From the IMG/VR virus record IMGVR_UViG_2671180847_000011: a DNA stretch of 20,048 nt, one strand, 5' to 3'. Under the pieces are notes generated by a model that worked only from the letters and a program-made list of their open reading frames with translations, was not told the origin of the DNA and did no database searches. The stretch comes from a virus (taxonomy: Duplodnaviria; Heunggongvirae; Uroviricota; Caudoviricetes). Shown here one piece after another: positions 1-14,584 of the stretch (position 1 is the stretch's first letter; every line of letters starts with the position of its first letter). Position numbers and translations under genes: made by a program.

Positions 1-201
1 TTACCCATTGGCGCGGCTTAAGAGCTTATTTTTGAATTCACAATGGTCACGATATAACCATCTTGCTCGCCCGTGGATAACTTTGGCTTTTGGCAGGTCG
101 CCGGACTTAATCCGGTCATAGATGAAGGTCTTACCGAAGCCAGTATCAGCCATGATGAATTTCAAATCAACCAGTGAATCAGGTTGTAGTTCGTGTTGCA
201 T
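1..201 (-). CDS. xis: Excisionase / AlpA-family small DNA-binding protein (Xis-like), 66 aa
   Basis: Complete ORF at the left edge, at the distal end of the leftward operon; small basic protein (MQHELQPD...GRARWLYRDHCEF) typical of prophage excisionase/AlpA regulators. Integrase would lie beyond the window. Confidence 0.6.
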   Translation of the reverse strand: MQHELQPDSLVDLKFIMADTGFGKTFIYDRIKSGDLPKAKVIHGRARWLYRDHCEFKNKLLSRANG

Positions 202-243
202 GAGTGCTATCTCCGAATAGGGAATCGAACCTGCAAATCAGGC

Positions 244-266
244 AATAAAAAACCGCCATCAGGCGG
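244..266 (-). terminator. Rho-independent terminator for leftward transcripts
   Basis: Stem ccgcc(253-257)/ggcgg(262-266) with loop atca; on the minus strand the hairpin is followed by TTTTTTATT (forward A-run 244-252). Confidence 0.5.
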
Positions 267-332
267 CTTGGTGTTCTTTCAGTTCTTCAATTCGAATATT
301 GGTTACATTGTTTTCATATATGAATAAATAAA

Positions 333-512
333 TTAGCTTTTTTCGTTGCCTTCGCTTTCTTTATTAATTTTAACAAACTCGTTTTTACCACGCTCTCCAA
401 ATGCGTCTTTAGAGTCGTTGTATCCGCAATCGCAGCACACATAATCTCCAGACCATCCACGCATTGTTTTTTCTTTTGCAATATTTCCAGAACCGCATTT
501 TGGACAAGACAT
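333..512 (-). CDS. Small zinc-ribbon protein (CPKCG...CCDCG), 59 aa
   Basis: Two Cys pairs; an internal ATG at 512 is preceded by GGAGG at 7-nt spacing, so the true start is probably shorter than the track ORF (333-545). Confidence 0.5.
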   Translation of the reverse strand: MSCPKCGSGNIAKEKTMRGWSGDYVCCDCGYNDSKDAFGERGKNEFVKINKESEGNEKS

Positions 513-608
513 ATCACTACCTCCAAAGCATGAGTGAGATGACAACGTAACATTGATTGGAGATTAACAATAGATTGCTGATGTAAAAGATATGTATAAG
601 CTTCGCTT

Positions 609-1268
609 TCAAAGTGGAGGCTCTGGTAGCCGCATCCAGTGTGACGGCTCACATACCCCCTCAACACCATTCATGTAAAAGAATTGAAATAACCCTTTAC
701 CTTTGTGAAACCCTACCATCTGCTCTTTAGTGTCTGAGCAATAAACCAAAACATCTTCTTCGTTTGGCATTCGATCACTACAGCTTATCCAACCATCAGG
801 AGTTACCGGAGAGTTGCCACCGGGAATATTTTCCGGAATATTTTGTTGTGCGTTTTGTGGTTGTTCGGATTTACCCTGAAGCATGGCGGCGCGGCAGGCG
901 TTCCAGCCAGCTGTTCGCCCAAGCGCGTAAACTTCAGATGGCTCAAGATAATCAATGTCATGCCCATCCTCATCGTCGTTCTCAGGTAATGCAGCAGGTA
1001 CTACCGGTACTGGCGGAGCGGCGTAGACTTCAATAATCCCATTATCAATAGGCCATTCCCCATCCTTGATGTAGTCACTTGTGCCGTCAACTTGCTGTTC
1101 TGCAATGTGGAATGCGCCAATAGGCTCTGCTTCCAGCGATGCCAGTGCAATACGCAGGGCAGCCAGGATATTCCCCTGGTAATCATCAAGCCCGAAAGGA
1201 AGCTCATCACGAACGCTTTCATAATCGTTGATAGCCTGCTGCAGCCATTCTCTTGTGATAGTGCTCAT
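609..1268 (-). CDS. Hypothetical phage protein with C-terminal DUF551-like domain, 219 aa
   Basis: C-terminus ...GWISCSDRMPNEEDVLVY...HWMRLPEPPL resembles the DUF551 signature of prophage early genes; start ATG overlaps the upstream stop (ATGA). Confidence 0.6.
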   Translation of the reverse strand: MSTITREWLQQAINDYESVRDELPFGLDDYQGNILAALRIALASLEAEPIGAFHIAEQQVDGTSDYIKDGEWPIDNGIIEVYAAPPVPVVPAALPENDDEDGHDIDYLEPSEVYALGRTAGWNACRAAMLQGKSEQPQNAQQNIPENIPGGNSPVTPDGWISCSDRMPNEEDVLVYCSDTKEQMVGFHKGKGLFQFFYMNGVEGVCEPSHWMRLPEPPL

Positions 1269-1870
1269 GATGCCTCTCCTTTACATGCTTCGGTGACGTT
1301 TATTCCAGCGTTGTGCAGTGCCTCAAGAACCTGATGCTGCCTGTAAACCATTTCAGTGTGGTAAGGCTCGTCAAAATCGACGCGATGCAACATGCTATAG
1401 CATTGCGGAAGCACAACCTCCCGCAACTCCAGCTCAGCAATGCGCTTCTCTGCGGCTTCCAGCTTCTCGCGCATATCGTCAACGTACTCGACCAGAGATC
1501 CGCCAGCAGGAATTTCGCACTCCTCGACCAGTTGGAAGTAGATATCAGCTGCGGCCCGTGTGTTGCTATGCCTAGCGTCGCCCATCTCACCTTCACGAAG
1601 AGCATCGCGTTCGGCGGTAAGATTGGCTATTTTGCTGTCTTTGCCTTCCAGCTCAACGCGCAGCTTCCCTACCGTTAGCGCAATTTCCTCGTTCTCCTGG
1701 TCGCGGGATTTGATGTATTGCTGGTTCCTTTCCCGTTCATCCAGTAGTGCCAGCACAACCTGAGGTGTGACCTTCATACGAAATGCCAGCAATTTTTGTG
1801 GTGTGGCTGCTATTTTTATTGCTTCTGCCGCATCACGCAGTGCCTGATAGTCAATTGTCATTCTCGCCAT
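1265..1870 (-). CDS. Hypothetical coiled-coil protein (possibly Ead/Ea22-like), 201 aa
   Basis: Long ORF with heptad-like charged segments (ELEGKDSKIANLTAERDALREGE...), coupled to both flanking genes by overlaps. Confidence 0.55.
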   Translation of the reverse strand: MARMTIDYQALRDAAEAIKIAATPQKLLAFRMKVTPQVVLALLDERERNQQYIKSRDQENEEIALTVGKLRVELEGKDSKIANLTAERDALREGEMGDARHSNTRAAADIYFQLVEECEIPAGGSLVEYVDDMREKLEAAEKRIAELELREVVLPQCYSMLHRVDFDEPYHTEMVYRQHQVLEALHNAGINVTEACKGEAS

Positions 1871-2502
1871 CCTTCACAGTTGTAATCACTACAGCCTTCA
1901 AAATCATATGGGCTGTACTGCCAGGAGATTTTTCCGCAATGCGGACAATTCCAACGCACCTTCCCGCTTCGCGACTTCTTTCTTCTGTTCTGCTCTTTCA
2001 ACCAGTCAGGCATGACCAAACCTGCGCCCTGAACCATTGTTCTGCGGTTAAAGTTATTGATATTGAACGTCCTGCGCTTTGCTGCATCAGCAATGGAAAA
2101 TGGCAACCAAACTATTCCTGGTTCGTTTTTGTTGGCGACGCTAAAGATGGTCGCTTTACTGAAGTCATCTGTTGGCAATCCACCGTGTTGAAGCCAGTAA
2201 ACATCGTTGCCGTTCCAGCTACCTTTTTTGTAGGCCACATACGCAGTGCAATCTGACTCAATCAGGCTTTCTGTAGGGATGTACTGGCAATCAACGTGCC
2301 ACACTGCCATTGCATCCACGCTATCAGCGCAAACAGGCTGATCGATATCTCGCCCACAATTCCAGGCTTTTTGGGCTTCTTCCAGCGTGTAAACATGAGC
2401 GCGATCGATATCAGAACTGTAACCATTGCCGTTATGGCAATGGAATGAAGCGTTATTGCCCACAGTTTCACGCGAGCACATCATGTAAAAACGGTTAGTC
2501 AC
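1858..2502 (-). CDS. Hypothetical Cys-rich protein, about 214 aa
   Basis: Track ORF 1858-2523 begins at a GTG; AGGAGG lies 6 nt upstream of an internal GTG at 2502, the more likely start. C-terminus has CPHCG...CSDYNCEGW, a possible zinc-binding motif. Confidence 0.55.
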
Positions 2503-2666
2503 TGGCTGCCTCCTTTGCGCCACATCGCATTCAGATATTTGTTTTCATTCACTGATGGAAAAGAATTTCTCTTAAGTAATTCCTCTCTCGATGGCATTGG
2601 CTTTACGCGTTGGCGAATAATCATTTCTGCCGGAAGAATGCCGGGATTGTATGCAAGTCCTCTCAT
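2499..2666 (-). CDS. Small hypothetical protein, 55 aa
   Basis: My own translation ([20 protein letters not shown]...); below the track size cutoff. ATG overlaps the stop of the upstream reading frame (ATGA); GGAG 9 nt upstream. Confidence 0.35.
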
Positions 2667-2954
2667 GATTTACTCTCCACGAACTGGTCAATAGCCATGC
2701 TAAGTGACATACCTAAAGCTTCGATATGCTGCTGAATATCCTGTAGCGTCCGTGCCTGAGATAACAGAATTTCACGGTTGCATAACTCTTTAACCAGATG
2801 CTCAAACTTGCTGTAATAACCGATACGGCTTAGTGTTTCTTTCCCTGCATTCTCGCCTTCTTTGATAATTCCTCTTTCGCTAAGAATCAGATCGTGTTTG
2901 GTTCCGGTAATAACGTATTTTTCCGAGGTCGATGTTTAGCTTCATTGTTTTCAT
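2664..2954 (-). pseudogene. Frameshift-interrupted gene of about 95 codons
   Basis: ATG at 2954 with GAGGAA RBS opens MKTMKLNIDLGK..., which stops at 2880; a different frame stays open from 2935 down to the TGA at 2664 (YVITGTKHDLILSERGIIKEGENAGKETLSRIGYYSKFEHLVKELCNREILLSQ...) but has no start codon. The frames switch at a 5-A run near 2915-2920. Confidence 0.35.
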
Positions 2955-2964
2955 TGTTAATTCC

Positions 2965-3261
2965 TCAGTCATTACTGATAGCGCCATAGCGTGAGCGGTA
3001 ATTACGCAGGCGCGGGTCGATATATTCAGGGAAGTGGGTATATGTGGCTTTGCGGAATGGTCGGATTGATGTCTGGTAAATTCGCTCGCGTTCTTCTTTC
3101 TCTGCAAGCCATATACAGTGGCGAAATTCCTTTTCCTCTTTCGTTTCCTGCGGTAGCGACATTATCCGGTCGTAGTTTTTCCTGAATTTATCCAGCACCT
3201 CCGATACGGAATTGCCGGAACAGCGGCGTGGGTCATCCGCACCATACAGAGGCGCTGGCAT
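2965..3261 (-). CDS. Hypothetical early protein, 98 aa (position fits an anti-RecBCD Abc-like gene; unverified)
   Basis: ORF with AAGGA RBS 7 nt upstream of ATG 3261; sits immediately downstream of the erf-ssb recombination genes. Confidence 0.5.
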   Translation of the reverse strand: MPAPLYGADDPRRCSGNSVSEVLDKFRKNYDRIMSLPQETKEEKEFRHCIWLAEKEERERIYQTSIRPFRKATYTHFPEYIDPRLRNYRSRYGAISND

Positions 3262-3284
3262 AATTAAATCCTTATTTTTCTAAA

Positions 3285-3668
3285 TCAGAATGGGATGGAA
3301 TCGTCGTATACAGGAGTGTTCTGCTGGTTACTACTTTGCTGCTGCGGGCCATTTCCTGAAGCTGCAAATCCAATCTTTGCATTCAGTAATTCAAGAGTGA
3401 TTGATTGACCATTTTGCCCCTGATAAACATCAACCCTGATGTTTTCTCCGGTAATTTCCACAATGCCACCTTCAACAAGAACACTACGGTAGTAATCCGC
3501 TTGCGCTCCCGGCTTGGCAAATACAACGGCGCTGTAGTTTGTCCATTCTTTCTTTTTTGTCTGGCGATCGTAATACTGAACGCCAGCACGGATGTTGAAT
3601 CCGATATTTTCCCCGGCCTGAAACTCTCTTGCGGGCTTGTTTAGTCTTACAGTAATCGAATGTGCCAT
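3285..3668 (-). CDS. ssb: Single-stranded DNA-binding protein-like, 127 aa
   Basis: Gly/Gln-rich tail ending in the SSB acidic tip ...PVYDDSIPF; start ATG at 3668 shares a base with the erf stop (TAATG). The track ORF extends further (to 3758) but overlaps erf. Confidence 0.65.
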   Translation of the reverse strand: MAHSITVRLNKPAREFQAGENIGFNIRAGVQYYDRQTKKKEWTNYSAVVFAKPGAQADYYRSVLVEGGIVEITGENIRVDVYQGQNGQSITLELLNAKIGFAASGNGPQQQSSNQQNTPVYDDSIPF

Positions 3669-4273
3669 TAAGCAGCCGCTCCTTCTAATTCGTCTCGTCT
3701 GATGTTGTAAACGTCCTGCGCTTTGTGCTGCTCCGGTGTGCCTTCGAGCATCTTCCACGCTTTGGCGAACGCCTGTTTAAGCTCTTCTACGGTGTTTTTC
3801 TGCATTGCTGCGTCAGTGAATGCTTTTAGAACCTGTTCAGGTGTAGGTGATGGTTTTGATTGCTTTGCTGCTGCGTTCTGCTGATGTTTATGCTCGTTTG
3901 TATCTGCATCTTTCGCATCATCAATGCCGAACAAACCATTGAGGCAATACTTGCGTGCATAAGAGCTTGTGGCTCCAGTAACTTGTGCAGAATCCATTCC
4001 TTTCTTGCTTTCTTCCTCTCGTGCAAGAGCGGTTGCCGTATGACTGTTTTCGCCATCGGTAATAGTTGCCGTGGCTTTCACGTAATACCGATCACCAATC
4101 AACACAACTTCATCGCTGATTGATAAAAACAGGCCATTCAGTAACGGCTTAACGCCTTCAAGAATGTCTTCGCAGCTTCTGTATTTATATTTACCGAATG
4201 AGTTGTACTGATTCTTTGGCGCGTTCAGATTCTCCTGAATAGCTGCCAGTCTTGCGTAAAATTCTTTGCTCAT
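3668..4273 (-). CDS. erf: Erf-family single-strand annealing protein, about 201 aa
   Basis: MSKEFYARLAAIQENLNAPKNQYNSFGKYKYRSCEDILEGVKPLL...ARKYCLNGLFGIDD closely matches my memory of P22 Erf; start set at the ATG at 4273 rather than the upstream TTG used by the track. Confidence 0.8.
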   Translation of the reverse strand: MSKEFYARLAAIQENLNAPKNQYNSFGKYKYRSCEDILEGVKPLLNGLFLSISDEVVLIGDRYYVKATATITDGENSHTATALAREEESKKGMDSAQVTGATSSYARKYCLNGLFGIDDAKDADTNEHKHQQNAAAKQSKPSPTPEQVLKAFTDAAMQKNTVEELKQAFAKAWKMLEGTPEQHKAQDVYNIRRDELEGAAA

Positions 4274-4283
4274 ATGATTGTTC

Positions 4284-4454
4284 TCAGAACGGACACGGCC
4301 CAAGGAAATAACGCTGATTTAATACTTCAGTCTTTGCCGCATTTAAAAATACGCGAACACCTTCACGATCTCCCTTCTGGCGATACATTAACGCCTGCTG
4401 CGTGTACATGCGTCTCTGTAACTTGCTCTCCTTCACTGTGGTTGCAAGTGACAT
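4284..4454 (-). CDS. Small hypothetical protein, 56 aa
   Basis: My own translation (MSLATTVKESKLQRRMYTQQ...); ATG at 4454 is preceded by AGGAG at 6-nt spacing. Overlaps the next ORF (4363-4533) in another frame, so one of the two is doubtful. Confidence 0.3.
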   Translation of the reverse strand: MSLATTVKESKLQRRMYTQQALMYRQKGDREGVRVFLNAAKTEVLNQRYFLGPCPF

Positions 4455-4533
4455 GAATATCTCCTTCGTTACCGATTAATTCTTTCATCTGACGAATGAA
4501 TTCTTCGTCTGACCAGTTATCCGTAAAACTCAT
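4363..4533 (-). CDS. Small acidic hypothetical protein, 56 aa
   Basis: MSFTDNWSDEEFIRQMKELIGNEGDIH...; ATG at 4533 overlaps the stop of the upstream small gene (ATGA). The C-terminal half overlaps ORF 4284-4454. Confidence 0.3.
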   Translation of the reverse strand: MSFTDNWSDEEFIRQMKELIGNEGDIHVTCNHSEGEQVTETHVHAAGVNVSPEGRS

Positions 4534-4682
4534 TTCCTGCGATACCACGGAAGGTTGATAGCTGATTTCATCGCTTTATTTGCTTCAAGCCACATTTTTG
4601 AATCACCAATAAATCGGGCTATTACTGCTTTGTTCTGTGCAGCACGAAGCATCTGGTGATTGATGGCTATTTCATTGCGCAT
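4530..4682 (-). CDS. Small protein in the kil position, 50 aa
   Basis: My own translation (MRNEIAINHQMLRAAQNKAVIARFIGDSKMWLEANK...); GAGG RBS 7 nt upstream; directly downstream of cIII, where lambda carries kil. Family not verified. Confidence 0.4.
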   Translation of the reverse strand: MRNEIAINHQMLRAAQNKAVIARFIGDSKMWLEANKAMKSAINLPWYRRK

Positions 4683-4798
4683 AATAAGACCTCAAATCTT
4701 TTCCATCCGTCACGTAATTTACGGGTGATTCGTTCAAGTAAAGATTCATTTAATTGGAAGGCACCCATGCGAGCGCCTCCCGCGATTGCGTAAATCAT
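4667..4798 (-). CDS. cIII: CIII-like protein (FtsH inhibitor), 43 aa
   Basis: My own translation MIYAIAGGARMGAFQLNESLLERITRKLRDGWKRFEVLLCAMK contains the conserved CIII core ESLLERITRKLRDGWKR; AAGGAA RBS 6 nt upstream of ATG 4798. Confidence 0.7.
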   Translation of the reverse strand: MIYAIAGGARMGAFQLNESLLERITRKLRDGWKRFEVLLCAMK

Positions 4799-4822
4799 GG
4801 GTGGTTCCTTATGTTGGTTTTA

Positions 4823-5791
4823 TTAGTAGGTTATTTTTGTTGCGAATACTTCGCCTTTTACGATGGCTGTTATGATATTTTTAGCAACATCTTCTGATGC
4901 GCCAACCTTGATAAGGTCAGCAAGTATTTTGTTATTTACTTCTTTCCGGTGAGCTTTATCCTTTGCTCTACGCTCTTCTTCGTCCTTGATTCTTTTTTCT
5001 TCTGCTATTCTGGCTTGCTCTTTTGCTTCAGCCTCGCGCCGGATTCGTTCAGCCTCCTCCTGTGCTTTTCGGCGTTCTGCTTCAATTGCCGCCTGCTTTT
5101 CTCTTTCAGCTCGTTCTGCTGCCTCTTTTGCTTCGCGCTGTGCTCGTTGCTCGGCTTCAATGCGTTCACGCTCTGCACGTTCCGCTGCGGCCTTAGCTTC
5201 TGCTTCTCGCCTTGCTGCTGCTTCAATTTCGGCTTTTGCCTTTGCTTCGGCTTCAGATCTGGCTTTCTCTTCAGCTTCTCTTTTTAAGCGTTCTTCATGC
5301 TCTCGCTTTTCCTGCTCCGCTTTGAGTCTTGCCTCTTCTCTTTGGCGGTCAAATTCGCGATCCATCAAAATCGCTATTTCATGGTCAGACTCAATTTGCT
5401 TTGCGAGAGCTTCAGCTGCTGCCTTAGCTTCTTCTTCGGCTTTAATCCGCGCCTGCTCCTCCTCATAATCAGTAAGAGGCTGGCGCGCCTTGGCTTTCAG
5501 TTCATCAAGGCGATCACGCACTGTCTTGCGGTTGGCATCAATTAGCTTTGGAATTTCCTTAAGTTCAGCAACAAGGTCTTTGCCAAGACCATCGAGATAT
5601 GTTTTCGTCTGCGCAACTTTATACGCCAGAGAAGCGATCTCCTTTCTGCCCTTTGCCGTTGTGATATCAGGCACAAAGGACATAACTTCACGTTCAACCT
5701 TTTGAAGGATTTCTTCAATCTGGTCGGCAGACTGAAATACAGTCATTGCATTTGCTTTTTCAATAACAACTAAATCTGTTACTTCACTCAT
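4823..5791 (-). CDS. Hypothetical protein with a long E/A/K/R-rich repeat region, 322 aa
   Basis: Globular N- and C-terminal parts flank about 150 residues of EAKAKAEIEAAARREAEAK-type repeats; GGAGGA RBS immediately upstream of the ATG. Confidence 0.65.
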   Translation of the reverse strand: MSEVTDLVVIEKANAMTVFQSADQIEEILQKVEREVMSFVPDITTAKGRKEIASLAYKVAQTKTYLDGLGKDLVAELKEIPKLIDANRKTVRDRLDELKAKARQPLTDYEEEQARIKAEEEAKAAAEALAKQIESDHEIAILMDREFDRQREEARLKAEQEKREHEERLKREAEEKARSEAEAKAKAEIEAAARREAEAKAAAERAERERIEAEQRAQREAKEAAERAEREKQAAIEAERRKAQEEAERIRREAEAKEQARIAEEKRIKDEEERRAKDKAHRKEVNNKILADLIKVGASEDVAKNIITAIVKGEVFATKITY

Positions 5792-5803
5792 ATATCCTCC
5801 ATC

Positions 5804-5832
5804 AAAAAAATTGCCCTCACATTAGAGGGCAA
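5804..5832 (-). terminator. Rho-independent terminator inside the leftward operon
   Basis: Stem ttgccctc(5811-5818)/gagggcaa(5825-5832), loop acatta; on the minus strand it is followed by a T7 run (forward A-run 5804-5810). Lies 13 nt upstream of the 322-aa gene start. Confidence 0.55.
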
Positions 5833-5925
5833 AGAAGATTTCCAATAATCAGAACAAGTCGGCTCCTGTTTAGTTACGAGCGACATTGCTCCGTGTATTC
5901 ATTCCAACGAGTGAATACACAGTGC

Positions 5926-6114
5926 TTATTCGTCATGCATTTCAGGTAATTCTTCGTATTCGACTCCCCATACGTTTTTACACCAACTAACTCGCTCATA
6001 TCTTTTACAAAAATCAGACCACATAACTTGTGTTCCATCATGGTTTGTTATTACTTCTGTAATATCACCAACACTAACAAAACTGGTATTAGAAGCAGTT
6101 ATTTTTACTTTCAT
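5926..6114 (-). CDS. Small hypothetical protein, 62 aa
   Basis: Track ORF; start ATG shares a base with the stop of the 44-aa ORF upstream (TAATG). Confidence 0.45.
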   Translation of the reverse strand: MKVKITASNTSFVSVGDITEVITNHDGTQVMWSDFCKRYERVSWCKNVWGVEYEELPEMHDE

Positions 6115-6248
6115 TACTCACCTCCAAGAGCATTTGCAGCCTCTTTTGCTTTGTGAATCCATAGCAGAGCCATGTAGTACACAGCCTTTTCGTCGGCTCC
6201 TGTGATATCTTGCTCTGCCATCCATTTTGTAAATTCAACTGCGTTCAT
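6114..6248 (-). CDS. Small hypothetical protein, 44 aa
   Basis: My own translation (MNAVEFTKWMAEQDITGADEKAVYYMALLWIHKAKEAANALGGE); GAGGTGA RBS upstream of ATG 6248. Confidence 0.4.
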   Translation of the reverse strand: MNAVEFTKWMAEQDITGADEKAVYYMALLWIHKAKEAANALGGE

Positions 6249-6285
6249 ATTCACCTCTGTTGTTTATGCCAAAAATAAAGGCCGA

Positions 6286-6909
6286 CTATGCGACCTCGGA
6301 AGGAAGTCCAATCATCTTATTCAAATCTTCTACCCGTAAAGCAGGAAGTGCTGTACTTGCTTTATCTGCTTCTTTTGGTAGCAATTCTTTGCTTTCAGGC
6401 CAAACTTCAATAAGTCGCTTAACTGTTGTGACTGAGTTCAAAGCAGCCCATACATTTGATTCGATATCCTTTTTCTTGGCTTCAAGTTTTTGTTGCAATG
6501 CGCAGATTTCATCAAACCTTTTTGTTATTTCGTGTTCTGCGTCAAACATGCATTTATCTTTTTCTGGGGTGGGGAGCAATATATCTTCACCGTTGCCGTC
6601 TTTTCCGTATGAATGCCAGCCAACCCTTCTTCCAGATACAGTCAGATAAATCGAAGTAGAACGAACATCGCATGAGTAAAATGAACATCCCATCTTCTCA
6701 AGTTCTTCACTTATAGCTGCTAACTTGGATGATAACCGATCCACTTCCTCAGTTTTCTTTTTACCGCCAAACGCAATAACTCTGGCGTCAAGTGCAAGCT
6801 GGTTCTTTAACTTTGTTACTTCTTCAAGTTCAGTGAAAACCCCAGACTTAATTAAAGCGTTACGAGCGATTTCCTCTTTCATTCTCGTAGTTAAGCGGAT
6901 TGATGACAT
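6286..6909 (-). CDS. Hypothetical protein, about 207 aa
   Basis: Start set at the internal ATG at 6909 (MSSIRLTTRMKEE...), which has a GAGAGGAA RBS; the track ORF begins earlier at 6969. No recognisable family. Confidence 0.55.
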   Translation of the reverse strand: MSSIRLTTRMKEEIARNALIKSGVFTELEEVTKLKNQLALDARVIAFGGKKKTEEVDRLSSKLAAISEELEKMGCSFYSCDVRSTSIYLTVSGRRVGWHSYGKDGNGEDILLPTPEKDKCMFDAEHEITKRFDEICALQQKLEAKKKDIESNVWAALNSVTTVKRLIEVWPESKELLPKEADKASTALPALRVEDLNKMIGLPSEVA

Positions 6910-7022
6910 ATTAATTCCTCTCAAATAAGTGGTTTGCTGCCTAATTTCATTTTCTGGCGACCAACACAAGTCACCCCCATTTCACTGCGTGGCTTGCGGT
7001 AGTAAATTAGGTTTGTTCAGAC

Positions 7023-7045
7023 AATAAAAAACCCACCGAAGTGGG
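7023..7045 (-). terminator. Rho-independent terminator (tL1-like) after the N-proximal genes
   Basis: Stem cccac(7032-7036)/gtggg(7041-7045), loop cgaa; on the minus strand it is followed by TTTTTTATT. Directly abuts the stop of the 7046-7384 gene. Confidence 0.6.
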
Positions 7046-7384
7046 CTATGACCATTTTTTATTTGGATTTCGTTGGTGAGCGTGATTAACAACTCTGTGC
7101 ATTACATCCTCATATTTTTCATCTTCAATTTTTTCGACATCGCGAGGAAATGGTGTTGCTAATGCTTTGTCAACTTTGTCCATTGGTTCTTCATTAATCT
7201 TATATTCAGGGCCATCATCTATAGCATTAAATCCAGGTGTTACACCGTTTTTTAATGCATATGCTATCCTTTTTTCCCATCTCGCTATTCTCCTCCTGTC
7301 TCGAGATGTAAGACCTCTATCAGATACTTTTCTGTTTTGTCCGCGGTCAGGATTAACATAAATAGTCTTTTTCACCATAAGCAT
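7046..7384 (-). CDS. Hypothetical basic protein, about 113 aa
   Basis: ORF immediately downstream of N; start uncertain (ATG at 7384 or 7378; the track uses a TTG at 7390). Confidence 0.5.
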   Translation of the reverse strand: MLMVKKTIYVNPDRGQNRKVSDRGLTSRDRRRIARWEKRIAYALKNGVTPGFNAIDDGPEYKINEEPMDKVDKALATPFPRDVEKIEDEKYEDVMHRVVNHAHQRNPNKKWS

Positions 7385-7386
7385 AC

Positions 7387-7692
7387 TCAATAAGCACCGT
7401 ACGGTAGTTTACTGTACAATTTTATTTTTTGGACTGCATGTATTTTGTTTCCTAATGGGTTTGAATCTTTGTAATAAATACTTCTATTTTTTCGAACGAC
7501 TTCTTCTTTCTTCTTGCAGCAAAGGCTTCCTAGCGATGCCGCTTTGTCTGCTCTGACGCAACCAGAGAGCTTTAGCGCAATTTTTCTCGCCAGTGCTTCA
7601 TTACTGCGTCGCTCGGCAATAAGTTCTGCTCTGCGAGCTTTGTAGCGGCTTTTTGCCGTACCTTTGGATTCTTTCCAGACAATGGTTACCAT
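7387..7692 (-). CDS. N: N-type transcription antiterminator with phage-21-type arginine-rich motif
   Basis: Contains GTAKSRYKARRAELIAERR, matching the phage 21 N boxB-binding motif as I remember it; first gene after pL/nutL; start taken at MVTIVWKESK (ATG 7692). Confidence 0.75.
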   Translation of the reverse strand: MVTIVWKESKGTAKSRYKARRAELIAERRSNEALARKIALKLSGCVRADKAASLGSLCCKKKEEVVRKNRSIYYKDSNPLGNKIHAVQKIKLYSKLPYGAY

Positions 7693-7802
7693 GATGGTCT
7701 CCTTTAAGTGGCTTTGGCGCATGACGCGTCGAGGTGCTTATCTTCTCGATCGCTGTCTTGCAGCTGCAATTCGCGCCATCCCCAAAACCACTCAAGTTCT
7801 GG

Positions 7803-7842
7803 TCTCAACGGTTAGGTTGAGAGTCCGTCGATGTTAAAGAGC
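7803..7842 (-). promoter_or_regulatory. nutL (boxA plus boxB)
   Basis: Minus strand reads GCTCTTTAACA (boxA, 7832-7842), then after 9 nt the hairpin tctcaac-ctaacc-gttgaga (boxB, 7803-7822). The same boxA sequence recurs at nutR. Confidence 0.7.
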
Positions 7843-7888
7843 CTGCCAATCTGTTCCGTTTGGCTTCCAGCGTCCTGCTGATGGCTTA

Positions 7889-7917
7889 AATTTAAGACTT
7901 CTTAATTTATTGGTCAA
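7889..7917 (-). promoter_or_regulatory. pL promoter with OL operators
   Basis: Minus strand -35 TTGACC (7912-7917), about 16-17 nt spacer, -10 TTAAAT/TAAATT (about 7889-7895). Operator-like palindrome ATTTAAGACTTCTTAATT at 7890-7907 lies between the -35 and -10; a second partial copy sits upstream near 7925-7945. Confidence 0.5.
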
Positions 7918-7980
7918 GTGCATTTTTGAAGAAAACTTAATTTTATGGGCGTGAATTTAGTTTGTCTTTGATTTTTAACG

Positions 7981-8008
7981 GGAAATAAAAAAGGGGCGAA
8001 AGCCCCTT
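7981..8008 (-). terminator. Rho-independent terminator immediately after the repressor gene
   Basis: Stem aaggggc(7991-7997)/gcccctt(8002-8008), loop gaaa; on the minus strand followed by TTTTTTTATTT. Overlaps the repressor stop codon. Confidence 0.65.
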
Positions 8009-8657
8009 AAGGAAGGTTTGCTAGCTTGGCATCAACGACAACGCCAATGATTTTACAGTTCCCATTGATTTCAATCATTGGGTATTGTGGATTGAGTGGT
8101 TTCAGGAATTTTCTACCGGCATCAATAACTAACTTTTTGAATGTCGCCTCGTTTTCTCCTTCAAGTTTGGCGACTACCAACTTTCCATTACGTGGTTCGA
8201 CTTCTGGGTCGACGAGAATAATCATCCCCTCAGGAATACTCAGTCCTGCCGGGGCAGTCATTGAATCGCCTTTAACGTCGAGCCAAAAAGAGTCTTCAGA
8301 ACAATCTACCGTTGTGTCGTACCAGTTATCTATTGCACGCCTATGATATGGCTCTACAGCTTCCATCCAACATCCTGCGCTTACCCAACTAATTAGAGGA
8401 TACGAACCTCTTGGATCATGCCTGCTGTGATAGGCAATGTTTGAAAGACTATCCTCTCCTTTCAACAGGTAATCAGGGGAGCACTGCAAAGCCTTGGCTA
8501 AGGCCAATAGGTTTTCGCCATTGGGCTCAGTTTCAGATCGCTCCCATTGGGAAATAGCAACATTAGACACGCCAACCATCTTGCCAAGGGCAGCCTGCCT
8601 AATCTTGAGTTCTTTTCTGCGAGCGCGAATACGCTCACCCATCAGTTGTGTATTCAT
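8007..8657 (-). CDS. c2: CI-type repressor (P22 C2-like; HTH plus LexA-like S24 autopeptidase), 216 aa
   Basis: N-terminal XRE-type helix-turn-helix (QAALGKMVGVSNVAISQWER); C-terminal domain with an Ala-Gly site (VSAGCW), Ser (GDSM) and Lys (KLVVAKL). Matches P22 C2 over its length as I remember it. Confidence 0.9.
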   Translation of the reverse strand: MNTQLMGERIRARRKELKIRQAALGKMVGVSNVAISQWERSETEPNGENLLALAKALQCSPDYLLKGEDSLSNIAYHSRHDPRGSYPLISWVSAGCWMEAVEPYHRRAIDNWYDTTVDCSEDSFWLDVKGDSMTAPAGLSIPEGMIILVDPEVEPRNGKLVVAKLEGENEATFKKLVIDAGRKFLKPLNPQYPMIEINGNCKIIGVVVDAKLANLP

Positions 8658-8737
8658 AGTTAAGACATCTTAAATAAACTTGACTTAAGATTCCTTTGGT
8701 GGATAATTTAAGTGTTCTTTAATTTCGGAGCGAGTCT
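8658..8737 (+). promoter_or_regulatory. OR operators with pR (and divergent pRM)
   Basis: pR -35 TTGACT (8690-8695), 16-nt spacer, -10 GATAAT (8712-8717), GGAG RBS before cro. P22-type operator palindromes: AGTTAAGACATCTTAAAT (8658-8675) and ATTTAAGTGTTCTTTAAT (8715-8732, overlapping the -10 and start site). Confidence 0.55.
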
Positions 8738-8923
8738 ATGTACAAAAAAGATGTTATTGACCACTTCGGAACCCAGCGTGCTGTTGCTAAAGCACTAGGC
8801 ATTAGCGATGCAGCAGTCTCTCAGTGGAAAGAAGTTATCCCAGAGAAAGACGCCTATCGATTGGAAATCGTTACAGCTGGCGCCCTGAAGTATCAAGAAA
8901 GTGCTTACCGCCAAGCGGCATAA
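8738..8923 (+). CDS. cro: Cro repressor (P22 Cro-like), 61 aa
   Basis: MYKKDVIDHFGTQRAVAKALGISDAAVSQWKEV... is a small HTH protein divergent from the repressor gene; near-identical to P22 Cro from memory. Confidence 0.85.
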   Translation: MYKKDVIDHFGTQRAVAKALGISDAAVSQWKEVIPEKDAYRLEIVTAGALKYQESAYRQAA

Positions 8924-8930
8924 GCAAATT

Positions 8931-8970
8931 GCTCTTTAACAGTTCTGGCCTTTCACCTCTAACCGGGTGA
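8931..8970 (+). promoter_or_regulatory. nutR (boxA plus boxB)
   Basis: GCTCTTTAACA (8931-8941) followed by the hairpin tcacc-tctaaccg-ggtga (8953-8970); same boxA as nutL and a shared CTAACC loop motif. Confidence 0.7.
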
Positions 8971-9038
8971 GCAAACATCAGCGGCAAATCCATTGGGTGT
9001 GCCGCTATAACTCAATATCAATATAGGAAAATTAACAA

Positions 9039-9335
9039 ATGGCACAAGCAAGCTACAGCAAGCCAACACAGCGAGAAATTGATCGCGCTGAAACTGATTT
9101 ACTCATCAACCTGTCAACGCTTACCCAGCGCGGTCTGGCAAAGATGATTGGCTGTCATGAATCGAAGATAAGCAGAACGGACTGGAGATTTATTGCTTCG
9201 GTCTTGTGTGCTTTCGGAATGGCATCAGACATCAGTCCGATTAGCAGGGCTTTTAAGTATGCGCTTGATGAAATCACAAAGAAAAAATCCCCGGCCGCCA
9301 CCGAGGATTTTAAGCAAATTGATATGCAATTCTGA
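9039..9335 (+). CDS. cII: CII-like transcriptional activator (P22 C1-like), 98 aa
   Basis: Homologous to lambda CII in my recollection, including the C-terminal [18 protein letters not shown] (lambda: KKRPAATERSEQIQMEF); sits after cro/nutR. Confidence 0.8.
9048..9061 (-). promoter_or_regulatory. CII-binding direct repeat TTGC-N6-TTGC (pRE-like)
   Basis: Minus strand reads TTGCtgtagcTTGC inside the 5' end of cII, the same location and orientation as lambda pRE. Confidence 0.45.
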
Positions 9336-9367
9336 GGGAATTACTGGATCAATCCACAGGAGTAATT

Positions 9368-9514
9368 ATGACAAAACAACTCAGTCCTTACCAGGACAAA
9401 ATTCACAAACACATACTACGTGATCGCTTCCTGTCCAGCTTCAAGCAGCCTGGTCGATTCCGGGCTGAGTTGGAAAAAGTGAAGCTGATGCAGAAGGAGA
9501 AAGGTCATGAGTAA
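9368..9514 (+). CDS. Small ORF between cII and O, 48 aa (position matches P22 orf48)
   Basis: My own translation ([48 protein letters not shown]); AGGAG RBS 5-6 nt upstream; its 3' end overlaps the O start. Confidence 0.45.
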
Positions 9515-10367
9515 TCTTGCAACCGTAACACATTTAAGGCCTTCACAACGGCCTGTGGAGCGTCGTGTGGCAGAAGTTGAAGATGGTTATACCCGTCTTG
9601 CAAATGCCCTGTATGAAGAGCTTATCGGCGCAGATTTAACGAAAAATCAGAGCAAGGTTGCCCACGCCATATGCCGTAAAACATACGGCTACGGTAAAAA
9701 GATGGATCGCATCTCTGATAGTCAGTTAGCTCAAATTACCAGGCTGCCAAGACAGAAGGTAAACAAGGCCAAGAATGAGCTTATCGCGATGAAGGTTATC
9801 CTTCGCGAAGGCCAGCAAATCGGGCCTAACAAGAACATCGAGGAATGGCAAATAGAAGGGTGTCACTACTCTGGTGATAATGTCACTGCATTGGTGACAA
9901 AAAGTGTCACCAAAACGGTGACAGCGCTGTCACCAAAACAGGGACACACAAAAGAAACTATTACAAAAGAAAAAAGAAATAATAAAAACACTATGTCCGA
10001 AAGTGTTCGGACGGAGTGTGAAAAATCACATGACCGTCACGAAGAAACCGACAAGGCATTCGAGGAAATATTCTGGTGTGCAGGCATGCGGAAAGCCGGG
10101 AAGAAAAACGCAGCTTCGGCATTCAGAACACAGTTCAGGGAATGGCGTAAAACTACCAGGGGTACGGCAAGCGAGTTTGCCACGATGCTGGCAGAAGACA
10201 TCGCATGCAGGAATGGTAAGCAGTTCGGATTCGACAGGTTGTTACCATCGAGCTACCTGAACGGTCAACGCTGGAACGACGAGAAGCCAGAAACTATTCA
10301 ACCACAATCCAAACCATCATCCGCAATCACCGTATCGAAAACTGGCTACGTGTTTTTCGACAGGTGA
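9507..10367 (+). CDS. O: Replication initiator, lambda O-like, 286 aa
   Basis: N-terminal domain alignable to lambda O ([14 protein letters not shown]...[11 protein letters not shown]...[25 protein letters not shown]); the origin iterons lie inside the gene. Confidence 0.85.
9861..9990 (+). repeat. Replication origin: four 19-bp iterons plus A+T-rich region
   Basis: Iterons TGTCAC-N7-(G)GTGACA/GGGACA starting at 9861, 9881, 9905 and 9928, each an internal inverted repeat, followed by an A/T-rich stretch at about 9951-9990. Same architecture as ori-lambda within O. Confidence 0.65.
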
Positions 10368-10370
10368 ACC

Positions 10371-10478
10371 ATGAAATCAAAAATCAAATCGCTACTGGTC
10401 GCTGGTTATAACCACGGCTGGTTAAGTATTTCGTTTGTCGATTTCTGGTTTAAAAATCTCAATCTGAGGGAATCATGA
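10371..10478 (+). CDS. Small ORF between O and the helicase gene, 35 aa
   Basis: My own translation (MKSKIKSLLVAGYNHGWLSISFVDFWFKNLNLRES); AGGTGA upstream; stop overlaps the helicase ATG (ATGA). May instead be a non-coding linker. Confidence 0.3.
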   Translation: MKSKIKSLLVAGYNHGWLSISFVDFWFKNLNLRES

Positions 10479-12355
10479 CGCCAAGTGAACTTAGCGACCT
10501 GCTTTGGGCGCAGGTTGACAGGGTGGCTCCGCACCTGTTGCCAAACGGCAAGAAAGAGGGGCATGAGTGGGTTGCCGGTAACGTCAATGGTGACAAGGGA
10601 AACAGCCTTAAGGTCAACCTTAGCGGCAAGAAAAAATGGGCTGATTTCGCTGAGGGAGACGGCGGTGACATGCTTGATTTGTGGATGGCATGTCGTGGAA
10701 TTAACCTGCATCAGGCTATGCAGGAAGCGAAAGCATTTCTCGGTATCAAGGATGACGATCACCATTTCGATGCCAAACGTGAGAAAAAATTCTCCAGACC
10801 TGATCGCAAGAAAATCGCCCGCTACGTTACCAGAACAGAATCCCATCTTGAGTACCTGCAATCGCGTGGCATATCGCCAGAAGTCGTAAAGCGCTACGAG
10901 GTTGTCAGCGGCAAGGTGTGGAATGGAGAACGAGAACTTGATGCACTGGTGCTTCCGTACAAACGCGATGGTGAGTTGTTGCAGGTCAAGCGAATCAGCA
11001 CTGAGCGCCCGGACGGGAAGAAAGTCATTATGGCAGAAGGTGATTGCGAACCTTGTCTGTTCGGATGGCAGGCTCTGGACGCTGGCGTAAGGGCGGTTGT
11101 ACTTTGCGAAGGCGAAATTGATTGTATGAGCTATGCGCAATACGGCATCTCGGCGTTATCCGTGCCGTTTGGTGGCGGGAAAGGCGCTAAGCAACAGTGG
11201 ATTGAGTTTGAGTATCACAACCTCGACAGGTTTGAGGAAATATTCATCTCGATGGACGTTGATGATGTTGGTCGTGAAGCCGCAAGGGAAATCGCAAGCC
11301 GACTCGGTGAACATCGTTGCCGTCTTGTTACTCTGCCGTACAAAGACATCAACGAATGCCTGATGAACGGTGTTACCGAGGATGAAATCTGGCAGTACAT
11401 CGGCACGGCATCCTACTTCGATCCTGAAGAACTCTACAGCGCGCGAGAGTTTTACCAGGACACTATCAACGCTTTCTACGGCAAGCAGCAGTATCTGTTT
11501 AATCCACCGTGGGAATCTCTGGCAGATAAATTCCAGTTCCGTGAGGCCGAGTTGACGCTGGTCAATGGTGTGAACGGTCACGGAAAAACGGAGGTTGTCG
11601 GGCATATGGCACTTGAGGCAATGCGTCAGGGTGTGAAGACATGCATCGCGTCACTTGAGCTGAAGCCTGGTATTCTCCTTAAGCGCCTTACCCGTCAGGC
11701 GACGTGCTGCAAGATGCCGCCAGTGCTGGAAATTGACTCTGCATTTAAATTTTATGACGAAAGACTTTGGGTGTTTGGCCTGACCGGAACGGCGAAAGCC
11801 GATAGGCTGATCGAAATATTCGACTACGCTCGCCGCCGATACGGGATCCAGTTATTCATCATCGACAGCCTGATGAAATGTGGCATAGGCGACGATGACT
11901 ATAACGGGCAGAAGGCGTTTGTTGACTCGATTTGCGACTTCAAAAACAAAACAAACTCCCACGTCATTCTCGTTACTCACTCCAGAAAAGGAGACAGCGA
12001 AGAAAAACCAACCGGGAAAATGGACGTAAAAGGCTCTGGAGCGATAACAGACCTGACAGACAACCTTTTCATCATCTGGCGTAACAAGGCTCGCGAGAGA
12101 GCGTTACAGAGGGTTCAGAGTGGTGAAAAGATGTCAGAGAAGGACGAACAGCTACTGGCATCTCCGGCATCTGTTTTGATGCTTGAAAAACAACGTAACG
12201 GCGAAGGTTGGGAAGGTGGTGTCCCGTTGTTCCTTGACGAGCAATCGCACCAGTTCCTGCAACTTGAATCAGGATCGCCATATAGCTACATCGCCAATAT
12301 GCCGAAATCGGAATATGACGAGGCGTGGCGACAGGAAAACGTGACGGAGTATTAA
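10475..12355 (+). CDS. Bifunctional primase-helicase (Toprim domain plus DnaB-like ATPase), 626 aa
   Basis: Toprim-like acidic motifs (VLCEGEIDCMSYAQ; DVDDVGREAA) in the N-terminal half; Walker A GVNGHGKT and Walker B LFIIDSLMK in the C-terminal half. Occupies the lambda P position. Confidence 0.8.
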   Translation: MTPSELSDLLWAQVDRVAPHLLPNGKKEGHEWVAGNVNGDKGNSLKVNLSGKKKWADFAEGDGGDMLDLWMACRGINLHQAMQEAKAFLGIKDDDHHFDAKREKKFSRPDRKKIARYVTRTESHLEYLQSRGISPEVVKRYEVVSGKVWNGERELDALVLPYKRDGELLQVKRISTERPDGKKVIMAEGDCEPCLFGWQALDAGVRAVVLCEGEIDCMSYAQYGISALSVPFGGGKGAKQQWIEFEYHNLDRFEEIFISMDVDDVGREAAREIASRLGEHRCRLVTLPYKDINECLMNGVTEDEIWQYIGTASYFDPEELYSAREFYQDTINAFYGKQQYLFNPPWESLADKFQFREAELTLVNGVNGHGKTEVVGHMALEAMRQGVKTCIASLELKPGILLKRLTRQATCCKMPPVLEIDSAFKFYDERLWVFGLTGTAKADRLIEIFDYARRRYGIQLFIIDSLMKCGIGDDDYNGQKAFVDSICDFKNKTNSHVILVTHSRKGDSEEKPTGKMDVKGSGAITDLTDNLFIIWRNKARERALQRVQSGEKMSEKDEQLLASPASVLMLEKQRNGEGWEGGVPLFLDEQSHQFLQLESGSPYSYIANMPKSEYDEAWRQENVTEY

Positions 12356-12384
12356 ATGACCATCTACATCACTGAGCTAATAAC

Positions 12385-12417
12385 AGGCCTGCTGGTAATC
12401 GCAGGCCTTTTTATTTG
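12385..12417 (+). terminator. Rho-independent terminator (tR2-like) after the replication genes
   Basis: Stem aggcctgc(12385-12392)/gcaggcct(12401-12408), 8-nt loop, then TTTTATTTG. Confidence 0.6.
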
Positions 12418-12431
12418 GGGGAGAGTAAATC

Positions 12432-12638
12432 GTGGCTGAGTTTATGCTCGTCGCATTCAAATGCGTTGGCGTTGGATGGATTCTTCTGACGTTTTTTATT
12501 GTTCTGCATAGCTACATTCGTCTTGTTAATGACGGTAAAGACCCATGGTATACGTTGTTTGGCGCTGCATTTGTCTGGGTGATTATCGGTGTTATGCCTG
12601 TCGCTGTAGCAAAAATGGCGTGGCGTTTTGTGAGTTGA
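12432..12638 (+). CDS. Small membrane protein, 68 aa
   Basis: GTG start with GGGGGAGAG RBS; two hydrophobic helices (VAFKCVGVGWILLTFFIVL; LFGAAFVWVIIGVMPVAVA). Confidence 0.5.
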   Translation: MAEFMLVAFKCVGVGWILLTFFIVLHSYIRLVNDGKDPWYTLFGAAFVWVIIGVMPVAVAKMAWRFVS

Positions 12639-12655
12639 ACTGAGGGTAAGTATCG

Positions 12656-12913
12656 ATGGACGAATCAAGAAAGCAGTTTGAGGCGTGGTTCAAATCAGAT
12701 TATCACCCAGACAAGGTAGGGCCATATATCAAAGATATTTTGTTCTTTTCGTGGCAGGCATCGCGAGCAGCTATCGAGATTGAGTGTCTTGGAAAAAGAG
12801 AGCGTGAGGCATTTTCTACCGATTTCGAGGATGGGGTCACATTTGGTTATAACGACGCAATTAGTGAATGCGAAGGACGGATTCGCGCTGCTGGAGTCAA
12901 AGTGAAGGAGTGA
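12656..12913 (+). CDS. Hypothetical nin-region protein, 85 aa
   Basis: ORF with GAGGGTAAG RBS; no family recognised. Confidence 0.55.
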   Translation: MDESRKQFEAWFKSDYHPDKVGPYIKDILFFSWQASRAAIEIECLGKREREAFSTDFEDGVTFGYNDAISECEGRIRAAGVKVKE

Positions 12914-13101: not shown

Positions 13102-13112
13102 AGGAGTATTCA

Positions 13113-13702: not shown

Positions 13703-13869
13703 TTGACCCAAATCGAAGTTACGAACAAGAAAGCGTCGAGCGGGCTTTAACGTGCGCTAACTGCGGTCAGAAGCTGCATGTGCTGGAAGTTCATGTGTGT
13801 GAGCACTGCTGCGCAGAACTGATGAGCGATCCGAATAGCTCAATGTACGAGAAAGAAGACGATGAATGA
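13699..13869 (+). CDS. ninF: NinF-like protein, 56 aa
   Basis: GTG start overlapping the ninE stop; ...[46 protein letters not shown] matches lambda NinF from memory. Confidence 0.6.
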
Positions 13870-14584
13870 GTTAATAAATGGCAATGCCATCAAAATGACA
13901 AGCATTGAAATCGCTGAGTTGGTTGGTAAGCGTCATGACAATGTGAAACGTACCATCGAAACGCTGGCTAAAAATGGTGTTATCCGGCTTCCTCAAATTG
14001 AGGATTGTGGAAGAATCAATGGGTTAGGCTTAAATCAAAGTTTTTGTGTGTATGTATTCGAAGGCGAACAAGGAAAGCGAGACAGTATTGTCGTTGTTGC
14101 CCAGTTGTCGCCAGAGTTCACCGCTCGCCTTGTTGACCGTTGGCGAGAGCTTGAAGAAGCTGCGGTTAATATCCCCAAAACGCTACCGGAAGCGTTGCGC
14201 CTTGCTGCTGACCTTGCTGAGCAGAAAATGCAACTGGAAAACCAGCTCGCAATTGCCGCACCTAAAGTTGAGTTTGCCGATCGCGTTGGCGAGGCCAGCG
14301 GAATTTTGATTGGAAACTTTGCAAAGGTTGTTGGAATTGGTCCAAACAAACTGTTTGCGTGGATGCGCGATCACAAAATCCTTATTGCTTCAGGTTCCCG
14401 GCGAAATGTGCCAATGCAGGAATATATGGAGCGCGGCTATTTCACAGTGAAAGAAACAGCGGTCAACACAAATCACGGAATACAGATATCGTTCACCACA
14501 AAAATCACCGGGCGTGGTCAACAGTGGCTGACCAGAAAGCTGCTCGATAACGGAATGCTGAAAGTAACAGGGGAGGCTGCTTAA
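13862..14584 (+). CDS. Rha / KilA-C family phage regulatory protein (antirepressor-like), 240 aa
   Basis: N-terminal Rha-type region (IEIAELVGKRHDNVKRTIETL) and C-terminal KilA-C/ANT-like region; occupies the lambda ninG slot. Confidence 0.75.
   Translation: MNELINGNAIKMTSIEIAELVGKRHDNVKRTIETLAKNGVIRLPQIEDCGRINGLGLNQSFCVYVFEGEQGKRDSIVVVAQLSPEFTARLVDRWRELEEAAVNIPKTLPEALRLAADLAEQKMQLENQLAIAAPKVEFADRVGEASGILIGNFAKVVGIGPNKLFAWMRDHKILIASGSRRNVPMQEYMERGYFTVKETAVNTNHGIQISFTTKITGRGQQWLTRKLLDNGMLKVTGEAA

Follow-up and report, generated by a model that had tools for sequence, protein, structure and literature searches.

In lambdoid and P22-like prophages, abc2 and the genes for DUF5405 and DUF2737 proteins form part of the early-left operon, downstream of erf, kil and cIII. 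RefSeq annotates the homologous regions in the order phage anti-RecBCD protein (abc2), DUF5405 family protein, DUF2737 family protein. The homologues of phage 186 and P2 are located close upstream of replication gene A, and in P2 the two genes are adjacent. Several DUF5405 homologues in RefSeq (NC_005344, NC_006949; Sf6, ES18, HK446 and others) carry the PHROG-derived label "replication initiation protein". No support for this label was found for DUF5405 homologues, and as a description of phrog_154 it appears unsupported. No mention of the family was found in the literature with regard to its function, and the literature on P2 orf83 likewise yielded nothing relevant. Among PDB structures no credible relative was obtained (the top match was prefoldin, E = 0.09), and searches against NCBIfam and PADLOC gave no significant matches.

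The locus described here lies in a stretch of 20,048 nucleotides of a virus of the class Caudoviricetes (IMG/VR record IMGVR_UViG_2671180847_000011), referred to below as the window. The element is a lambdoid or P22-like E. coli prophage integrated beside dsdC, with the gene placed in the early-left (PL-side) operon. In this copy, a run of four A's in the DUF5405 gene is replaced by a run of five, and the locus is very probably a young frameshift pseudogene specific to one lineage, derived from an accessory gene of the DUF5405 family by insertion of one A into the A4 run. Comparison of sequences demonstrates the insertion itself, its restriction to one lineage and its inheritance.

Organization of the split gene

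The coordinates of all features are given in Table 1. On the minus strand, the sequence reads GAGGAA (2966-2961) and, after a spacer of 6 nt, ATG (2954-2952). The frame opened by this ATG encodes MKTMKLNIDLGKIRYYRNQTRSDS and is closed after 24 codons by TAG at 2882-2880. Another frame of the same strand is open from 2935 to TGA at 2665-2663, which corresponds to 90 sense codons, and is directly preceded by TAA at 2938-2936. In this frame no ATG, GTG or TTG occurs before the ATG at 2710-2708, codon 76 of 90, from which only 15 residues could be made. The terminal TGA overlaps the ATG of the next gene (2666-2664) as ATGA. The junction between the two frames is a stretch of five A's at 2918-2922 (T5 on the plus strand), where the codon context is GGA AAA AUA CGU. 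Deletion of one A from the 292 nt of the window copy gives an ORF of 291 nt, with 96 codons and a stop.

Most of this arrangement had been described in a first-pass annotation made from the sequence alone. Its ribosome-binding site GAGGAA with an ATG at 2954 opening a 24-codon frame, and its start-less frame of about 90 codons ending in an ATGA overlap, were both confirmed by the sequence. The meeting of the frames at a 5-A run and their fusion upon removal of one A also stood, while the details required correction: the run had been placed near 2915-2920, the fused frame had been given as about 95 codons, and the end of the gene had been set at 2664 instead of 2663.

Table 1. Features of the DUF5405 locus and its neighbours (positions in the window)
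Feature	Positions	Strand	Basis
Probable DUF5405-family pseudogene, whole (homologue of Sf6 gene 24 and P2 Orf83)	2663-2954	minus	Identity to Sf6, Pfam, PHROG
Shine-Dalgarno-like GAGGAA, overlapping the abc2 stop TGA (2967-2965)	2961-2966	minus	Sequence; junction the same in homologues
Frame-0 remnant, ATG and 23 codons followed by TAG; only the first 12 residues native	2880-2954	minus	
A5 run with one A inserted	2918-2922	minus	All homologues outside the carrier lineage have A4
Downstream-frame remnant, 84 native codons (YVITGTKHDL...FVESKS) and TGA; no usable start	2663-2917	minus	
abc2, phage anti-RecBCD, 98 aa, intact; upstream neighbour	2965-3261	minus	Pfam Anti-RecBCD_p2, E = 4e-62; RefSeq
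DUF2737 gene, 55 aa, intact; downstream neighbour	2499-2666	minus	Pfam DUF2737, E = 1e-32

An 801-nt region matched 1,383 complete-genome E. coli records and 238 phage records. In a four-way DNA alignment comprising the gene with about 20 nt upstream and about 10 nt downstream, the sole difference of the window from Sf6 gene 24 and from the gene of E. coli Br_167_kylling (WP_000855561.1) was the extra A, an agreement well beyond what chance would give. The repaired 96-aa protein scored 25.1 bits with Pfam DUF5405 (PF17399; cut-off 21.6 bits; E = 2.5e-5) and matched phrog_154 with E = 2.1e-32 over residues 1-95. With the same protein as a tblastn query, 161 records of the phage collection were matched, and at least 80% of the query was covered in 158 of them. 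Each of the phage matches listed, including ES18 gp45, P2 Orf83 and the phage 186 homologue, consisted of a single alignment piece, and the matches extended from residues 3-7 through 80-96.

The position of the A run within the family was evident from an alignment of seven proteins. Invariant residues were found in 17 columns on both sides of the run, among them I8 and G11 on its N-terminal side and V14 and T16 on its C-terminal side. The N-termini of the homologues from Sf6, ES18 (gp45), Hafnia phage yong1, P2 (Orf83) and phage 186 align from residues 1-6, and the proteins start at the position of M1 or M4, upstream of the run. The downstream-frame remnant of the window aligns to residues 13-96 of the intact homologues. 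Since invariant columns flank the site and the N-termini lie upstream of it, a single ORF reads through the run in the DUF5405 family, with no independent start for the downstream frame. That homologues might start this frame on their own had been raised by the first-pass annotation, and the alignment speaks against it. As regards family membership, the window copy shows both the profile match and full-length collinear alignment and lacks an intact translatable ORF; with a 24-codon ORF and a start-less frame, it is to be regarded as a pseudogene member of DUF5405 and not as a functional one.

The same data bear on the possibility that nothing is broken at this locus, either because the downstream frame is an independent gene with a non-canonical start or because the mRNA is corrected by transcriptional slippage. 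The codons ATT, CTG and ATC do occur in the downstream frame, and RNA polymerases can slip on A/T runs (PMC5009743). However, the homologues begin upstream of the run, the invariant I8 and G11 belong to frame 0, no Shine-Dalgarno-like sequence was seen before the earliest near-cognate start (ATT at 2911), and gene callers place no gene between abc2 and DUF2737 in the assemblies carrying the lesion. For productive transcriptional slippage, runs of about 8-9 or more are needed, and five A's are too few. Taken together, an unbroken locus is hardly conceivable.

Distribution and inheritance of the A5 allele

Both alleles were searched for in several collections. An 81-mer containing A5 had an exact match in none of 304 E. 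coli records and none of 13 phage records, and the E. coli matches listed for this 81-nt query all span 80 nt. A shorter A5 query, the 38-mer AAACATCGACCTCGGAAAAATACGTTATTACCGGAACC, gave no match by megablast in 5,426 complete E. coli genomes; megablast needs an exact word of 28 nt, so the 38-mer cannot seed on A4 copies. The corresponding A4 37-mer, used as a control on the same 5,426 genomes, returned 170 records, of which 163 were exact. With a pattern accepting either allele, A4 was found in 112 of 112 IMG/VR contigs and 32 of 32 metagenome contigs. Neither allele was found in the GTDB species-representative genomes, a collection from which the gene is evidently absent, and that scan is uninformative. 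When the whole window was used as a megablast query, no complete E. coli genome covered more than 62% of it.

Carriers of A5 were identified by exact-protein look-ups with two rarer products of the window, the Nmad5-family protein (6286-6909) and a 201-aa Ead/Ea22 protein (1265-1870). A look-up with the 214-aa neighbour, which is too widespread a protein, returned only lesion-free prophages. One carrier, GCA_001609745.1 (contig LODB01000279.1), is 100% identical to the window over 1-12909 (matches 1-11870 and 286-12909). The run of five was also present in GCA_048061955.1, GCA_048061995.1 and GCA_048062315.1, so that two unrelated accession series together supply at least four distinct draft assemblies with A5; one further similar place was counted besides these. 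In all cases, the prophage occupies one chromosomal site, adjoining dsdC/dsdX/dsdA and emrYK-evgAS, and the interval from abc2 to DUF2737 is left without a gene call. The carriers differ from the window by 1-7 SNPs in approximately 15 kb that comprise the arms and the host flank (more than 99.9% identity). Three different immunity modules (repressor/cro/cII) were found among them, replacing approximately 7001-9343 of the window. The immunity region has thus been swapped recently, at least twice, within one lineage, with the arms left nearly unchanged.

The Nmad5-family protein is a putative nucleotide-modification protein of 207 aa, encoded on the minus strand in the early-left region, where its gene adjoins an N-like gene. 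It was found in about 250 blocks of a public contig collection, in varied lambdoid contexts.

A homopolymer miscall over a true A4 genome would have to be weighed against this distribution. Some platforms are notorious for homopolymer indels, all other copies in large collections have A4, and broken-looking gene calls also occur in other related draft assemblies, such as GCA_000176555.2. On the other hand, A5 is present in at least four assemblies of the series LODB... and JBLTM..., which differ by SNPs and by the three immunity modules, and for systematic miscalling five A's make a short run. The base call is founded on assemblies that concur, though the JBLTM* series accounts for three of the four, and these may share a sequencing method. 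That a miscall should recur in this group of related strains alone, and never among about 300 others, is not credible. Because A5 is common to assemblies that differ in SNPs and in immunity modules, it is an inherited insertion and not a read or assembly error, and a miscall is accordingly rated as very improbable.

The quality of the rest of the window was evaluated in the same way. The indel at the A run is backed by 96 of 96 high-identity comparators, and no other uncompensated indel with comparable support was found in the approximately 18 kb of the window that could be compared with relatives. The other uncompensated candidates were single-base differences at 13109 and 16243, each resting on 2 comparators and located outside genes annotated in relatives. 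By this comparison, the window does not look error-prone.

Two further places with altered reading frame were observed. In the gene for a KilAC antirepressor (ORF 13862-14584, plus strand), a paired single-base gain and loss at 14036-14050 distinguishes the window from 3 of 3 high-identity relatives. In the Nmad5-family gene (ORF 6286-6909, minus strand), such a pair at 6563-6565 distinguishes it from 5-6 of 6 high-identity relatives. Both represent short compensated frame changes.

Unusual gene calls were also noted in the drafts GCA_000176555.2 and GCA_002109845.1, where the 214-aa gene is called as two pieces of 109 and 59 aa and a 107-aa ORF overlaps the end of abc2; in GCA_002109845.1 the DUF2737 gene is not called. 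These probably represent further frameshifts or assembly errors in other copies.

The only run lengths seen were four, in all copies elsewhere, and five, in one lineage, with exactly five in 4 of 4 carrier assemblies. A phase-variable or transcriptional-slippage locus is recognized by a homopolymer of about 8-9 nt or more with coexisting length variants among close relatives, a description that the 5-nt run does not fit. The extra A, located in codons 11-13, most likely arose by replication slippage in the A4 run.

Predicted consequences for translation

Ribosomes starting at the normal ATG would synthesize 12 native residues, continue in the wrong frame and stop after 24 codons, and the remaining 84 native codons, having no start codon, would stay untranslated. 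With termination 215 nt upstream, the ATGA coupling to the DUF2737 gene would be lost, and a polar effect might follow. The DUF2737 gene is itself provided with a GGAG, 8 nt before its ATG. The genes downstream of the pseudogene are all intact, and the lengths of the neighbouring genes all agree with the annotation in relatives.

The sequence of the site itself suggests one way in which the full-length protein might still be made. The codon following AAA is AUA, a sense codon; of the 85 Ile codons in the adjacent genes only 13 are AUA, fewer than for either of its synonyms. AUA is rare in E. coli. A shift by +1 would move the tRNA from AAA onto AAA (A-AAA-A) with perfect re-pairing of tRNA-Lys, the next codon would be UAC, encoding the native Tyr13, and the product would be identical to the wild type. 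According to the review by Atkins et al. (PMC5009743), the single tRNA-Lys of E. coli is prone to shifting, +1 shifts are promoted by slow codons in the A site, and compensation of indels at a low level is documented in other cases. The downstream frame, moreover, contains no second lesion. These features would suit functional +1 frameshifting, whether programmed or compensatory (a "savior indel"), which would restore the wild-type 96-aa protein at a reduced but possibly useful level.

Several observations stand against such a function. Conservation of the two-frame layout is lacking: outside a single near-clonal lineage, hundreds of copies and all distant homologues are single ORFs. No Shine-Dalgarno-like stimulator was found directly 5' of the site, where the upstream sequence reads ...ATCGACCTCGG and has CTCGG in place of a GGAGG- or AGGGGG-like element. 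The 86 nt from just upstream of the run fold no better than shuffled controls (z = 0.04), and Rfam gave no match. AUA, although infrequent, is not a stop and does not count as a starved codon. With 1-7 SNPs per approximately 15 kb among the carriers, no further decay would be expected of a recent mutation in any case. Functional frameshifting at this run is thus considered very unlikely. There is also only a slight chance that A5 is an attenuated, translationally rescued allele, with a low and possibly growth-state-dependent supply of wild-type protein and with reduced expression being tolerated or useful.

Rare accidental +1 slippage of tRNA-Lys before AUA is a different matter, and considering the codons involved, it is possible that low-level wild-type protein is produced in this way. 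Some slippage at A-AAA-AUA is mechanistically plausible, which is a point against the reading as a pseudogene: A5 may be a leaky allele and not a null one. That the downstream frame has decayed no further agrees with a recent event, but continued selection for a rescued product would leave the same picture.

Among the causes that the first-pass annotation proposed for the two frames, a pseudogene is strongly favoured, with A5 inherited and the homologues having A4. At least four assemblies speak against a sequencing error, and the confinement to one lineage and the lack of a stimulator against a programmed shift. The annotation had also considered a run of four A's in the actual genome; independent assemblies agree on five. 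Its principal claim, that a frameshift at a 5-A run interrupts the gene, holds, as the alignment shows the intact homologues to have A4 and to form one ORF.

A frameshift pseudogene is also compatible with the optional nature of the gene. Of the 1,383 E. coli records with a match to the abc2-DUF2737 region, just 304 carry DUF5405. In three relatives lacking it, the abc2 stop, a 10-nt spacer GGAATTTACC and the DUF2737 ATG are joined directly, and this spacer is the same as that preceding DUF5405 in the window (window 2663-2964 compared). To judge from these junctions, the gene behaves as a precise presence/absence cassette. The record of the phage 186 homologue is annotated "not essential". The comparison of genomes thus shows a gene that can be dispensed with, and because it is dispensable, its loss probably costs the phage or prophage little.

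For annotation, the locus should be labelled as a frameshifted DUF5405 pseudogene rather than left blank or split into short ORFs. The A5 lesion is a handy clonal marker for one prophage and host lineage. Since a shifted ribosome would make the wild-type protein here, the site would also serve as a clean natural example on which to measure accidental +1 slippage at A-AAA-AUA. Beyond correct annotation the finding is of little importance: it concerns a known accessory phage gene family and an ordinary recent pseudogene.

Comparison with described systems

The closest described gene is Sf6 gene 24 (NP_958200.1; cf. WP_000855561.1). It occupies the same slot between abc2 and DUF2737 and has the same ribosome-binding site, start codon and ATGA overlap. 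The difference lies in the run, which is A4 in Sf6 and A5 in the window, where the copy is not translatable as one ORF. P2 Orf83 (NP_046794.1) and its phage 186 counterpart (NP_052287.1) are about 33% identical over nearly the full length, and their N-terminal motif I-x-x-G...V-x-T spans the frameshift site. Unlike the window copy, these genes belong to Peduoviridae, are found in another operon context (upstream of replication gene A) and are intact.

With regard to recoding, the site can be compared with +1 sites of the prfB (RF2) type. In both, the P-site tRNA can re-pair perfectly in the +1 frame (principles in PMC5009743); the codon that follows here, AUA, may be a relatively slow one. In contrast to prfB, the A-site codon here is not a stop, no Shine-Dalgarno-like or other stimulatory element was found, no regulatory logic is apparent and the arrangement is not conserved. 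"Savior" indels, such as the G-run indels of the herpesvirus thymidine kinase (PMC5009743), resemble the present case in that an indel in a homopolymer is potentially offset by frameshifting on the run. They differ in that the run of the window has only 5 nt and that any benefit or rescued product would here be hypothetical.
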